A DNA stretch of 64,000 nt from a virus (taxonomy: Duplodnaviria > Caudoviricetes): the IMG/VR virus record IMGVR_UViG_3300042558_004043. One strand, 5' to 3'. The notes under the pieces are model-generated. The model was not told where the DNA came from and searched no databases. It worked only from the letters and a program-made list of their open reading frames with translations. This document shows positions 28,314 through 38,344 of this stretch, piece by piece. Numbering within the stretch: position 1 is the first letter of the stretch; each line of letters begins with the position of its first letter. The position numbers and the translations under genes are program-made.

Positions 28314-28349
28314 GGTTTTACCTGTATATTTGTAAAAGTTATTTGAAAT

Positions 28350-28639
28350 GCTGGGTTGATGGAATAGGTAGACATTCAGGACTTTAACTATTTGAGTGCG
28401 TCTTGAGAAATCAAGAATGTAGAACTCCGTAAATTCGGTGAACCCTCCGAAAGTGGGAACCCCGAGCCAAGCCTGAAAAGGAAGGTGTAGAGACTAGACA
28501 CGGAGCACCTAAATCGTAAGATATGGTGAAGGTATAGTCCAGACCACAAACAACTTTTAGTTGGTAGTGAAAACTATAGTGGTAAGAAAATCCTGTGGAC
28601 ATTGCGTCCGTGTGGGTTCGAGTCCCACACCCAGTACCA
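28350..28639 (+). tRNA. tRNA-Leu(UAA), intron-containing
   Basis: 5' exon 28350-28384 ends CAGGA-CTT; 3' exon 28587-28639 starts AAAA-TCCTG, long variable arm, T-arm, encoded CCA; acceptor GCTGGGT/ACCCAGT. Confidence 0.92.
28385..28586 (+). mobile_element. group I self-splicing intron (202 nt, no ORF)
   Basis: core AAATTCGGTGAA / AACCCCGAGCCAAG / AAGGTGTAGAGACTA / GGTATAGTCC; P1 ACUU:GAGU with U.G at splice site; terminal G28586. Confidence 0.92.
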
Positions 28640-28641
28640 AA

Positions 28642-28715
28642 GCACCCTTAGCTCATTAGGTTAGAGCAAGTGACTCATAATCACTGGGTGGCAGGTTCGA
28701 ATCCTGCAGGGTGCA
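28642..28715 (+). tRNA. tRNA(CAU), probably Ile2 (lysidine type), otherwise elongator Met
   Basis: GCACCCT/AGGGTGC acceptor, AGTGA-CT-CAT-AA-TCACT; resembles bacterial Ile2 tRNAs. Confidence 0.85.
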
Positions 28716-28727
28716 CTAGTTAAACAT

Positions 28728-28872
28728 AGTCAAGTGGCGGAATATTGAGAGTCTCCGGAAACATACTCTCAAGGTAGACGTACTAGATGGTTATAGCACT
28801 AGGGGTAAAAAAGCACAATGCGTGTGGTCACTATAATGGCAGCCCGTGGAGGTTCGAATCCTTCCTTGACTA
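28728..28872 (+). ncRNA. oversized tRNA-like RNA (T1, 145 nt)
   Basis: AGTCAAG/CTTGACT acceptor, GGAGG-TTCGAAT-CCTTC T-arm, hairpin inserted in D-loop, 12-nt anticodon loop, branched variable arm. Confidence 0.7.
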
Positions 28873-28975
28873 CAATTTTTTTAATTTACTATGAATGGGT
28901 TAGAATTATTATTAATTGGTATTTGGGTCGGAATGGGACTTGGGTACTTAATAACAAAAGATTTTTATAAGAAAA

Positions 28976-29620
28976 ATGGCACAAGGCGTTCATAAAATAA
29001 CTGAAGAATTTGAAAAAAAATTATCAGACTATACCGGAGCTCCGTTTGTAGTTACAGTAGATAATCAAAGTAATGCACTTTTTTTATCTCTGATGTATGA
29101 AAATGTGAAGGGAATGGATATTGAAATTCCTTGTAGGACATATCCATCGGTCCCTTGTGAAATAATTCACGCAGGAGGTAAAGTTAAATTCTTTAATGTG
29201 GAAGGAGATACGATTAAAGGGGCATATCAGTTATATCCAACTAAAGTTTGGGATAGTGCGTTAAGATTTACTCATAACATGTACATTCCAAACACACATA
29301 TGTGTGTATCTTTCACAGGACCATACAAACATTTAAAATTGGGCAAAGGTGGTGCTATTTTAACTGATGATGAAAATGCCTACAAGTGGTTTAAAAAGGC
29401 TAGATTTAGCGGTCGTGATGAATGTAGTTATCATGATGATGATTTTGATAAAAATCCGGTAATCGGATGGAATTTCTACATGATGCCTGAAATTGCGGCA
29501 AGAGGATTACTTTTAATTAGTCAGTTCTATGATTCGAAGGGAATTCCTATTATCAACGAAGATTTAGAATTACCTTATCCTGATTTATCTAAATTTAAAA
29601 TCTACACTAAAATTAATTAA
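28976..29620 (+). CDS. DegT/DnrJ/EryC1/StrS-family PLP-dependent aminotransferase-like protein (short)
   Basis: EFEKKLSDYTG, NQSNALFL, SFTGPYKHLKLGKGGAILTDD, GWNFYM. Confidence 0.8.
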   Translation: MAQGVHKITEEFEKKLSDYTGAPFVVTVDNQSNALFLSLMYENVKGMDIEIPCRTYPSVPCEIIHAGGKVKFFNVEGDTIKGAYQLYPTKVWDSALRFTHNMYIPNTHMCVSFTGPYKHLKLGKGGAILTDDENAYKWFKKARFSGRDECSYHDDDFDKNPVIGWNFYMMPEIAARGLLLISQFYDSKGIPIINEDLELPYPDLSKFKIYTKIN

Positions 29621-36467: not shown

Positions 36468-36485
36468 AACACCTATCTTTGTACT

Positions 36486-36938
36486 ATGAAAAGAATTTAT
36501 TTGGATGACATTCGTACACCTCTATCTAACGATTGGATTGTTGTTAGAAATTACGACGATTTTGTTAATAAAGTAACTGAGATTGGTCTCGGTGAAATTG
36601 AAACAATCTCATTGGACCATGATTTGGGTGATACCGCAGTGAATGAGTATTTTGCAAATGTATCCCCAAACTACAAATTGGATTACGATAATATTAAGGA
36701 AAAAACCGGATATGATTGTACAAAATGGATTGTAGATTATTTTTATGAAATGAATCCTGATAGGATTGAGATGAGCCGTTCCAAAAAGGGTGCTAGTAGT
36801 ATTAAATTTCCTTTGGTAGTCGTACACTCGGCCAATCCTATCGGCTCGGCAAATATTATGGGGTATATTAATAATTTTTTGATGAATGAAAATAAACCTC
36901 AAACTTGTATTAGGGTTAATATTGACCATACGGTTTAA
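36486..36938 (+). CDS. cyclic-phosphate-processing receiver-like domain protein
   Basis: IYLDDIRTP, ISLDHDLG, KTGYDC, VHSANPIG. Confidence 0.75.
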   Translation: MKRIYLDDIRTPLSNDWIVVRNYDDFVNKVTEIGLGEIETISLDHDLGDTAVNEYFANVSPNYKLDYDNIKEKTGYDCTKWIVDYFYEMNPDRIEMSRSKKGASSIKFPLVVVHSANPIGSANIMGYINNFLMNENKPQTCIRVNIDHTV

Positions 36939-37038
36939 TTAAACATTCGTATATTTGTAAAAAAGTATGACTCTATGTCATACTTTTTTTTTGTTTTTGA
37001 TATTTATCTTAATATAATAACTGACTTAATAAAAACTG

Positions 37039-37374
37039 ATGATGGAGCAACACTTGGTTACAATTCTCGTTACACTAATAACGGTTTTAACTTCAAACGC
37101 GGCTTGGAAATATTATGAGAAAAGAATGTTGTTGAAGCAAAGGCAAGAAGAGAATCAACACAAAGATGGGGAACTTTATAGAGATGATTTAAGAGAAAGA
37201 ATTGTTAAATTAGAAACATTACTTGACGAATCATCCAAAGAAAAAGATAAGATGAGAGAAAACATCATCGTATTAACCACTTCACTCTCAAGATTAGAAG
37301 TTGAGGTGGATTTCTTAAGAAAAGAAAACGAAAAGTTAAGAGCGGAAAATCAATTTTTGAGAACTAAAGGATAA
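37039..37374 (+). CDS. membrane-anchored coiled-coil protein (holin-like)
   Basis: one N-terminal TM then coiled coil; directly upstream of a peptidase-like gene. Confidence 0.55.
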   Translation: MMEQHLVTILVTLITVLTSNAAWKYYEKRMLLKQRQEENQHKDGELYRDDLRERIVKLETLLDESSKEKDKMRENIIVLTTSLSRLEVEVDFLRKENEKLRAENQFLRTKG

Positions 37375-38057
37375 TGAATAAAAAATTAAATGAGGTAGTT
37401 GATACGTACTCAAATGTTGAATTTAGAGATAGAGTGGTAGGTAATTCAACGCCATCTAAGGATAATATTAATATTTCTTTATTATCAGACATTCAGACTG
37501 CAGCTAAAAAGGCGAATGTTCAAGTTTCAGTAACTACGGCAGTGACCGGACATAGAAAAGGAACTAGACATCAAACGGGTAATGCTGTTGATATTGCCAT
37601 GATTAACGGTAAAGGTTGGAGCGATGAAAGTTCTGCAAAAACCAAAGGGATTTATGATAGTATTAAACGATTTGTTGATGAATTGAAAAATTTGGGGTAT
37701 TTGGTGAATGTTAAAGAATCAGGTAATCCTAAAGTTGTTTTATGGTTTGGTTATAAAAATCATAATAATCATGTTCATATTTCAAATAAGTCAGGGGTAT
37801 CACCCACACAACCTCCTAAAGATTCGACAACTACCAACGATGAAGATTTACCAACACCTGATGATGATTCAGAAGAAATTAGCCCTGAATTATCTAAATC
37901 ACTTAAAACTTTAACTCCGGGCTCTAAAGGTCTTGATGTGTTTGGTGGAAAATTGGACCCTTTAATGAAAGGGTTTGAAAAGGCGTTTGGTCAATTTGGT
38001 ATGAATTCTATCGTTAAAGAAGATGTCGATAGAATTAAAAATTTGATGAATCTGTAA
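37374..38057 (+). CDS. M15-like zinc peptidase (possible cell-wall hydrolase)
   Basis: RHQTGNAVDI (H-x6-D) and NHVHIS (HxH). Confidence 0.65.
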   Translation: MNKKLNEVVDTYSNVEFRDRVVGNSTPSKDNINISLLSDIQTAAKKANVQVSVTTAVTGHRKGTRHQTGNAVDIAMINGKGWSDESSAKTKGIYDSIKRFVDELKNLGYLVNVKESGNPKVVLWFGYKNHNNHVHISNKSGVSPTQPPKDSTTTNDEDLPTPDDDSEEISPELSKSLKTLTPGSKGLDVFGGKLDPLMKGFEKAFGQFGMNSIVKEDVDRIKNLMNL

Positions 38058-38096
38058 TTTTTTTACGATTTTGCTTGTCTGGTGAGTATTTATCCT

Positions 38097-38344
38097 TATA
38101 TTTGTAAAAGATTTGACACCTACAGGTGATGAAAGATACTCGGAAAGTTAAATCAAAAAAAAAATACAAATAAATTTGGTAGATTGAAAAAGTCACCATA
38201 TATTTGTAAAGGATTTGAGACGGACAACGATTAAGATACAAGTCTCGAATCTTAAAAAAAGTTTAAGAAAAATTTGACAGAACGAAAAATTTGACTTAAA
38301 TTTGTAAAACAATTCGGGAATGACCGAAGAAGTTCTTTGAAAAG
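38097..38344 (+). promoter_or_regulatory. three tandem Bacteroidota-type promoters, leader hairpins and boxA
   Basis: TAnnTTTG at 38097, 38199, 38297; hairpins 38110-38154, 38212-38251, 38313-38328; GAAGTTCTTTGAAAA 38329-38343. Confidence 0.7.

Follow-up and report, generated by a model that had tools for sequence, protein, structure and literature searches.

The stretch of DNA analysed here (64,000 nucleotides (nt); hereafter, the window) comes from the IMG/VR virus record IMGVR_UViG_3300042558_004043 (Duplodnaviria; Caudoviricetes). Between positions 28325 and 38344, it carries three separate RNA transcription units on the plus strand, the third of which runs past the end of this interval, and a fourth unit lies just outside. 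Their leaders contain sequences resembling boxA, an element of bacterial ribosomal RNA (rrn) operons, in which leader elements follow the order boxB–boxA–boxC and the antitermination complex contains NusB, S10 (NusE), NusA, NusG, SuhB and S4. A preliminary description of this DNA had proposed that the phage transcribes its untranslated RNA operons as if they were rRNA operons. The results presented below make it reasonably probable that these leaders recruit the rrn-type antitermination machinery of the host via boxA.

Transcription starts were predicted from the −7 box TAnnTTTG, which spans −12 to −5 in Flavobacterium (PMC9723704), a geometry that places them at A28337, A33599 and A38309. The first unit has the −7 box TATATTTG at 28325–28332, followed by AAGTTATTTGAAAT at 28336–28349, which directly adjoins the start of tRNA-Leu at 28350. 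Within it, a boxA-like variant, GTTATTTGAAAT (28338–28349, +2 to +13; C5A, with an A at boxA position 5), abuts the tRNA and scores 10.3 with the matrix described below. The unit (28350–28716) encodes a tRNA-Leu(UAA) interrupted by a 202-nt intron (28385–28586) and a tRNA-Met(CAU) (28642–28716); once 28385–28586 is removed, what remains is a canonical tRNA of 88 nt whose CCA is encoded (ARAGORN). The insert in this tRNA-Leu gene (28350–28639) splits U34 from A35 and has G as its last base. We take it to resemble a small group I intron of the Azoarcus/cyanobacterial type (P3/P7/P8 core); Rfam gave no Intron_gpI match. In relatives of the phage, the anticodon arm of tRNA-Leu is uninterrupted in the stretch compared.

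The second unit opens with the same −7 box, TATATTTG, at 33587–33594, followed by GAAGTTCTTTAAAAA at 33597–33611. Its boxA, GTTCTTTAAAAA (33600–33611, +2 to +13), fits the gamma-proteobacterial pattern GYTCTTTAANA (PMC5725501). About 1.05 kb without a credible open reading frame (ORF) lies behind this promoter, forming a structured-RNA array (33622–34644) with tRNA-Lys(CUU), tRNA-Ile(UAU) and tRNA-like elements. In the array (compare L047:1500-1990), hairpin-dense RNAs alternate with tRNA-shaped elements sharing the acceptor stem AGTCAGG/CCTGACT, and some of the tRNA-shaped elements reach about 105–110 nt, their anticodon or variable regions being remodelled. An Rfam E-value scan of 25–41 kb assigned none of the array RNAs to a family and left the tRNA-Leu intron unreported.

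The third unit is that of GOLLD, one of the largest non-coding RNAs of bacteria and phages. Its −7 box, TAAATTTG (38297–38304, with TTGACA at 38274), is followed by a boxB-like hairpin, TTCGG-GAATGA-CCGAA (38313–38328, +5 to +20; folding energy −6.4 kcal/mol), then directly by GAAGTTCTTTGAAAA at 38329–38343, which includes the boxA GTTCTTTGAAAA (38332–38343, +24 to +35). GOLLD itself occupies 38345–39182, with a variable 5' domain and the Rfam 3' domain at 38789–39182 (RF02032, 321 bits against a gathering score of 150, model positions 1–416). The operon ends with a tRNA-Met(CAU) (39200–39273) and a strong intrinsic terminator (39281–39305), the two together spanning 39200–39305. Upstream of this promoter, a small conserved hairpin RNA at 38097–38160 (GATTTGAC...AGGTGATGAAAGATACTCGG...GTTAAATC) has its own TATATTTG promoter. 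The same type of element is present in L198, L209, L226, L234 and L261, and in other phages it sits between the GOLLD promoter and boxA. A second promoter with a hairpin lies at 38199–38250. The fourth unit, on the minus strand (39788–40226), is a tmRNA operon (RF00023, 93 bits) with the −7 box TATCTTTG at 40226–40219, the boxA-like GTTATTTGATAT at 40212–40201 (about +3), tmRNA at 40198–39821 and a terminator at 39815–39788; its tmRNA gene was not called by ARAGORN. The preliminary description had reported a promoter and motif before the array, a hairpin and motif at 38329 before a large RNA, and a one-mismatch motif at 28336 before the tRNA-Leu cluster; all three are borne out, the array being ORF-free and the large RNA being GOLLD.

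The window is part of an 81.6-kb record, for which CheckV gives a completeness of 28%. Relatives drawn by its NusG and a neighbouring protein are freshwater jumbo phages of 294–322 kb, one of them with terminal repeats, and the source, judging from these genomes, is a freshwater jumbo phage of about 320 kb sampled as an 81.6-kb fragment. A megablast of 28000–40500 against cultured-phage records gave no match. The Bacteroidota sigma-A −7 box TAnnTTTG recurs in intergenic regions, often as TATATTTGTA, and one ORF in the window has a type IX secretion sorting domain; a host from the Bacteroidota is therefore likely, at the level of the phylum.

No published boxA for Bacteroidota was found in the literature, including searches for the Bacteroides 16S leader together with boxA, and the element was therefore derived anew from rrn loci. 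A scan with a Bacteroidota-specific 16S segment gave 80 such loci, 58 of them with a leader of at least 300 nt. With promoter words and A-runs set aside, the most widespread leader 8-mers were TTCTTTGA and GTTCTTTG. The motif GTTC(T/A)TTGA lies 88–210 nt upstream of 16S in 37 of the 58 leaders (consensus AAAAGTTCTTTGAAAATATTGAAA), and GTTC(A/T)TTGACAT is present in the 16S–23S spacer at 41 of 49 loci. Leader and spacer are the two classic positions of boxA in bacterial rrn operons, and GCTCTTTAACA is the variant of gamma-proteobacterial rrn operons. By homology, the GTTC(T/A)TTGA element is therefore the rrn boxA of the phylum, with the corresponding function predicted. Host rrn sites have TATTGAA in common after boxA, and in many leaders promoter, hairpin and boxA follow one another within about 50 nt. 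Flavobacteriaceae use the T5A variant GTTCATT, and a metagenome-assembled genome from Bacteroidales has GTTATTTGAAAC at −111 of its rrn leader. A definition of the Bacteroidota rrn boxA at the level of the phylum, covering leader and spacer, was not found in print.

The leader of GOLLD, AGAAGTTCTTTGAAAA, is identical to this host consensus over 16 nt, and that of the array, GTTCTTTAAAAATATTTAAA, also follows part of the downstream TATTGAA; the identity of the phage element with the host rrn boxA holds at the phylum level only. NusB–NusE reads boxA in a base-specific manner at G2, C5, U6 and U8 (PMC3177189), all four of which are present in the copies at 38332 (GUUCUUUGAAAA) and 33600 (GUUCUUUAAAAA).

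A matrix was built from the host rrn sites and both strands were scanned. The GOLLD leader is the best match in the 81.6-kb record, and the array leader is tied for second place with an identical, promoterless 14-mer outside the window. In G001, a complete 321-kb relative, some 640,000 positions were scored, and the two ranking highest were the leaders of GOLLD and of the array, each right after a −7 box. There are 39 intergenic TAnnTTTG sites in the record and, up to 45 nt downstream of them, the four highest scores belong to the promoters of GOLLD, the array, tRNA-Leu and tmRNA (17.6, 15.0, 10.3 and 7.0, versus a best score of 4.4 among the 34 promoters other than those of RNA genes). A score of at least 9 is reached at three of the five RNA-gene promoters and at none of the 34 others (Fisher p = 0.001, Mann-Whitney p = 0.0055). 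The motif scan of RNA genes versus protein genes proposed in the preliminary description thus finds the motif restricted to RNA-operon leaders, after four of five RNA-gene promoters and none of 34 others. By itself, the exact 12-mer is only weakly unexpected over 64 kb. Allowing it one mismatch gives no significant enrichment across the window, and a combined promoter and boxA pattern, which was too strict, gave no matches. The placement of the motif is far beyond chance. As judged from the geometry of the −7 boxes, it stands in the transcribed leader, on the sense strand and upstream of the RNA that it serves.

The motif is also conserved. In five relatives, the promoter, TAAAACAA, the hairpin and GTTCTTTGAAA of the GOLLD leader are kept and boxA is invariant, while the sequence just 3' of the leader has diverged, with an indel of about 55 nt. 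Relatives (including L047) have GTTCTTTGAAAT at the boxA position of the array, and a homologous array in G003 stands behind the same kind of leader. In the complete relatives, tRNA-Leu, the array, tmRNA and a tRNA-like array have GTT(C/A)TTTGAAA upstream, right after a −7 box, and G003 has a second leader with hairpin (stem TTCAG/CTGAA) and boxA before five tRNAs. A pattern taken from the GOLLD 3' domain of the window retrieved 80 viral loci, all from low-GC phages of Bacteroidota style, of which 55 were non-redundant and had enough upstream sequence for a 200-nt test window 700–900 nt upstream. GTTC(T/A)T(T/A)(G/A)A was found at 52 of these 55 loci, and at none of the 55 on the opposite strand of the test window or within 400 nt inside GOLLD. 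It lies 4–8 nt ahead of the start of the conserved GOLLD 5' domain (GATTATCC...), at a variable distance from the promoter, also after the 3' ends of tRNAs or other small RNAs within operons (including L316), and it is present in a 635-kb uncultured megaphage. The conservation expected in the preliminary description therefore extends to related and more distant phages with diverged flanks.

Among the promoter-proximal GOLLD leaders, 31 of 38 contain a hairpin of 5–6 bp, 2–4 nt upstream of boxA. This hairpin takes 20 distinct sequences in about seven stem types (including TTCGG/CCGAA, TCGGA/TCCGA, TCAGG/CCTGA, TGAGG/CCTCA, TTAAGG/CCTTAA, ATTAGG/CCTAAT and GTCAC/GTGAC), and comparison of these sequences indicates that the stems vary by compensatory change. 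In the window, such a hairpin precedes boxA at 38313–38328, and the short leaders starting at 28337 and 33599 have none. A function of the hairpin and the U-rich boxA as an attenuator was considered and rejected: the stem has 5–6 bp, the U-tract is interrupted and offset and the short leaders are hairpinless. A structural role of boxA in GOLLD was likewise rejected, on the basis of GOLLD RNAs that lack it. These are the unannotated GOLLDs of the Acinetobacter phages Bestia (L314:1122-1909, 222 bits) and YMC13/03/R2096 (L315:1014-1752, 218 bits), each of which lies in a tRNA array, between tRNA-Asn and tRNA-Asp.

The mechanism to which we give somewhat better than even odds starts with host sigma-A RNA polymerase initiating at the TAnnTTTG promoters. 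The first nascent nucleotides of the GOLLD and tRNA-Met operon and of the tRNA and non-coding RNA array would then carry the Bacteroidota rrn boxA, preceded at GOLLD by a short boxB-like hairpin, in the order of rrn leaders. This boxA RNA would bind host NusB–S10, which, together with NusA and NusG (the host protein or the phage copy), would convert the polymerase into an rrn-type antitermination complex. Such a complex would transcribe the untranslated, folded RNAs of about 1 kb rapidly and without premature termination and would aid their co-transcriptional folding, the leader presumably being trimmed off afterwards. A broader version can be put forward more tentatively, as somewhat less probable than its opposite: across Bacteroidota phages, GOLLD genes and the tRNA and non-coding RNA arrays near them may as a rule begin with boxB–boxA, so that the nanocage RNA would be made through an rrn-type Nus complex that accelerates and chaperones its co-transcriptional folding. 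Some jumbo and mega phages would tune or monopolize this complex with their own NusG, and heavy expression of the leaders could drain NusB and S10 from the rrn operons of the host.

Several results weigh against recruitment of the antitermination machinery. The tRNA-Leu and tmRNA leaders carry GUUAUUUG, that is, C5A, and thus lack C5; in the boxA of phage lambda, this change greatly lowers NusB–NusE affinity and blocks antitermination (PMC3177189). Relatives G001 and G002 have the GTTATTTGAAAT variant at the same position before tRNA-Leu, and relatives carry it at the tmRNA leader position; the variant is probably functional in some way, and we consider the odds that the C5A copies are Nus-factor sites to be about even. 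The tRNA-Arg at 25810, with a promoter at 25784, has no boxA. In rrn operons, boxA lies much farther from the start than in the short leaders, where it begins at +2. The Flavobacteriaceae variant GTTCATT occurs in none of the 52 phage copies at GOLLD, and fine tracking of the host boxA variant is therefore not demonstrated by these copies. No boxA was found in 3.4 kb around the GOLLDs of the two Acinetobacter phages. The motif is therefore external to the GOLLD fold, and its absence there favours a separate transcription or processing signal, although not a universal one. Finally, no C-rich, G-poor tracts suited to Rho loading were found in the RNA operons (C/G about 0.8, as in the genome), and their internal terminator-like hairpins are weak, so that a need for antitermination as such is not evident from these operons. 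The benefit of the leaders may therefore lie in elongation speed and the chaperoned folding of RNAs of about 1 kb, rather than in read-through of terminators. The proposal that the RNA operons are transcribed like rRNA operons thus stands in part: the boxA is of host type, specific to RNA operons and conserved, but the C5A copies and the boxA-less tRNA-Arg operon do not fit it.

Other explanations of the motif were weighed against this one. The best-surviving of them, which we nevertheless consider unlikely, is a Nus-independent RNA maturation signal common to rrn and phage precursors, such as a site for a trimming nuclease or for a processing or assembly factor. The motif would be well placed for this purpose, always just outside the mature RNA (4–8 nt before the GOLLD 5' helix and 0–10 nt before tRNA-Leu and tmRNA) and kept internally behind tRNAs; but its sequence, including the intact contact residues, is that of the classic boxA bound by NusB/S10, it is found at both of the canonical rrn sites of the host phylum, and no nuclease is known to recognize it. 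There is also a small chance that the motif acts at the DNA level, as a promoter-proximal element (an initially transcribed or discriminator-like sequence, or an operator timing the RNA genes). Three of the four leaders in the window have it at exactly 5–6 nt past the −7 box, where it overlaps the predicted start, and promoter and motif are nearly identical between operons (TATATTTGTA(A/G)AAGTT(A/C)TTT). Against this, the GOLLD copy lies 27 nt past the −7 box, behind a covarying RNA hairpin, and other phages have the motif far from promoters, behind tRNAs. The strict strand specificity (0/55 on the opposite strand) and the identity with a host element that lies 15–200 nt from rrn promoters, and also in spacers, are equally difficult to reconcile with a DNA element.

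Parts of the GOLLD stretch were found in 23 RNA libraries, nearly all of them river or freshwater metatranscriptomes. Four river metatranscriptome assemblies have many contigs over the GOLLD body, at a very high word depth; one RNA-library contig links a leader including AAGTTCTTTG to the body of GOLLD, in a G001-like variant. RNA of the boxA leader joined to GOLLD is thus present in RNA libraries. Compared with the GOLLD body, word depth over the leader bins is low or nil, and it is nil over the flanking protein genes, figures that were not used to draw conclusions about processing or transcript ends. This abundance, the several strong promoters bearing the motif and the presence in the phage of NusG but not of NusB or S10 could suggest a decoy, with leaders titrating host NusB/S10 off the rrn operons and aiding host shut-off. 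Such a role appears improbable as an explanation of the motif, since its fixed site directly 5' of structured RNAs and its internal operon positions fit action in cis, and accumulation of the leader is not evidenced.

The preliminary description had also reported a full-length NusG at 5451 and tied it to the boxA leaders. The ORF at 5451–5972 (plus strand, 173 aa) contains NGN and KOW domains and passes the TIGR00922 cut-off (141.6 versus 135.7); PF02357 (5.9e-19) and PF00467 also match. Its residues 2–173 align with residues 8–180 of Escherichia coli NusG, and the IFGR tip of KOW, presumably the S10/Rho contact, is conserved. By these matches, the ORF is a genuine NusG. Homologues are 74–97% identical in related jumbo phages and about 56% identical in a 598-kb megaphage-like contig, and named bacterial NusGs are about 37–46% identical to the phage protein. 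In the 598-kb contig (L312:5001-7032), NusG stands beside a nucleotidyltransferase of PolyA_pol/CCA-adding type; in the window, nusG is directly followed (5969–8011) by a calcineurin-like metallophosphoesterase and a histidine-kinase-like protein with PAS and HATPase domains, such a sensor kinase being, to our knowledge, unusual in a phage. No NusB or S10 genes were found in three complete relatives, so any complex would need the host proteins.

The conservation of NusG in this lineage, together with the use by Bacteroidota of UpxY-type NusG paralogues on specific leaders (NCBIfam NF033644), raises the question of whether the motif is a loading site for the phage NusG as a specialized paralogue of the RfaH, LoaP or UpxY style, its likeness to the rrn boxA being incidental. 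This is very improbable: the protein passes the housekeeping cut-off and fails those of the specialized paralogues (LoaP 105 versus 125, UpxY 70 versus 100, RfaH 32 versus 124–144), and the motif equals the host rrn boxA. No NusG was found in ten other contigs drawn by the GOLLD pattern. Three of these NusG-less contigs are at least 90% complete, of which two are weak cases, G013 being boxA-less in the test window and G014 having failed the GOLLD filter. The third, G012, is a complete 308-kb phage with a hairpin–boxA–GOLLD leader, on the strength of which a NusG-specific loading site was rejected; the nine other contigs likewise yielded no NusG. G012 also counts against the tie between NusG and the leaders, the design of which is therefore independent of phage NusG. 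The NusG of the preliminary description is thus real, whereas its link to the leaders is circumstantial: plausible but optional on the gene content of these phages, the phage protein possibly supplementing or replacing host NusG without being required. Why jumbo and mega phages of Bacteroidota carry their own NusG is a question raised by these data; no relevant paper was found on NusG in jumbo or huge phages. Chance, or passive survival of captured host DNA, might be suggested by the lack of significant enrichment of the one-mismatch 12-mer, but is refuted as far as computation goes by the statistics of position, strand and conservation, and by the fact that GOLLD is not a host rrn neighbour.

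Other genes in the window touch on these units less directly. A sugar-modification cassette at 28976–32268, with a DegT-type aminotransferase fragment, a PglD-like acetyltransferase and a PhyH dioxygenase, lies downstream of tRNA-Leu and tRNA-Met. It may share their promoter, because no strong terminator was called in between; the lectin-like protein with the type IX secretion sorting domain comes after it. A single 3,998-aa ORF begins at the end of the window (63645–75641 in window coordinates, mostly beyond the window). At 12 positions, the letters of the window and of the stored genome record disagree.

Compared with known systems, the large RNA behind the leader at 38329 is clearly GOLLD as described, beside tRNAs, an RNA reported to form a 14-mer nanocage (PMC12286853; bioRxiv 10.1101/2024.12.08.627333). 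The GOLLD papers searched make no mention of a boxB or boxA at its 5' flank, no paper joining GOLLD and boxA was found, and these features also go unmentioned in a paper describing a new lineage of aquatic jumbo phages. Relative to GOLLD, the boxB–boxA module is lineage-specific, being absent in the Acinetobacter phages. It provides a testable handle on the production of GOLLD, and it suggests that correct folding or yield may need the Nus-factor complex, which would matter for the expression or assembly of GOLLD in cells.

A close parallel is with the leader and spacer signals of bacterial rrn operons. The phage leaders have the same boxA as Bacteroidota, the hairpin-then-boxA order, a large, folded, untranslated RNA downstream and co-transcribed tRNAs, and phage copies recur at internal operon positions, as does the spacer boxA. 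They differ in the products of the operons, which are GOLLD, tRNA-like RNAs and tRNAs instead of rRNA, and in the extreme shortness of the leaders, where boxA already begins at +2 or +24. Nothing corresponding to boxC was identified here, and no definition of boxC for the phylum is known to us; where the host has TATTGAA, the array leader reads TATTTAA, and nothing like it is seen in the GOLLD leader.

Use of host boxA by phages is already known from the nut sites of lambda and from T7. Like lambda nutL and nutR, the leaders described here have a boxA, a predicted use of host Nus factors and a hairpin adjacent to boxA. The lambda sites have the order boxA–spacer–boxB and act with the N protein, whereas here the hairpin precedes boxA, an arrangement that is not of the lambda nut type. 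No N-like protein turned up, although no search aimed at such proteins was made, and the variation of hairpin loops among phages argues against a loop-specific reader of N type. In T7, rrn-type boxA lies behind the early A1–A3 promoters (Savalia et al., 2010, as cited in PMC3709561). As far as that citing account goes, T7 is similar in having no N-type protein and a host rrn-type boxA just behind promoters for the host polymerase, and it differs in that its boxA serves an early mRNA operon in E. coli, whereas here non-coding RNA operons of Bacteroidota phages are served, in association with GOLLD. Three points were not found in print: that boxA is placed on operons of non-coding RNA in Bacteroidota phages, that it accompanies GOLLD there almost constantly, as a boxB–boxA module, and that a phage NusG goes along with it. 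With these leaders, the known use of host boxA by phages such as lambda and T7 would come to include Bacteroidota phages and operons of non-coding RNA.

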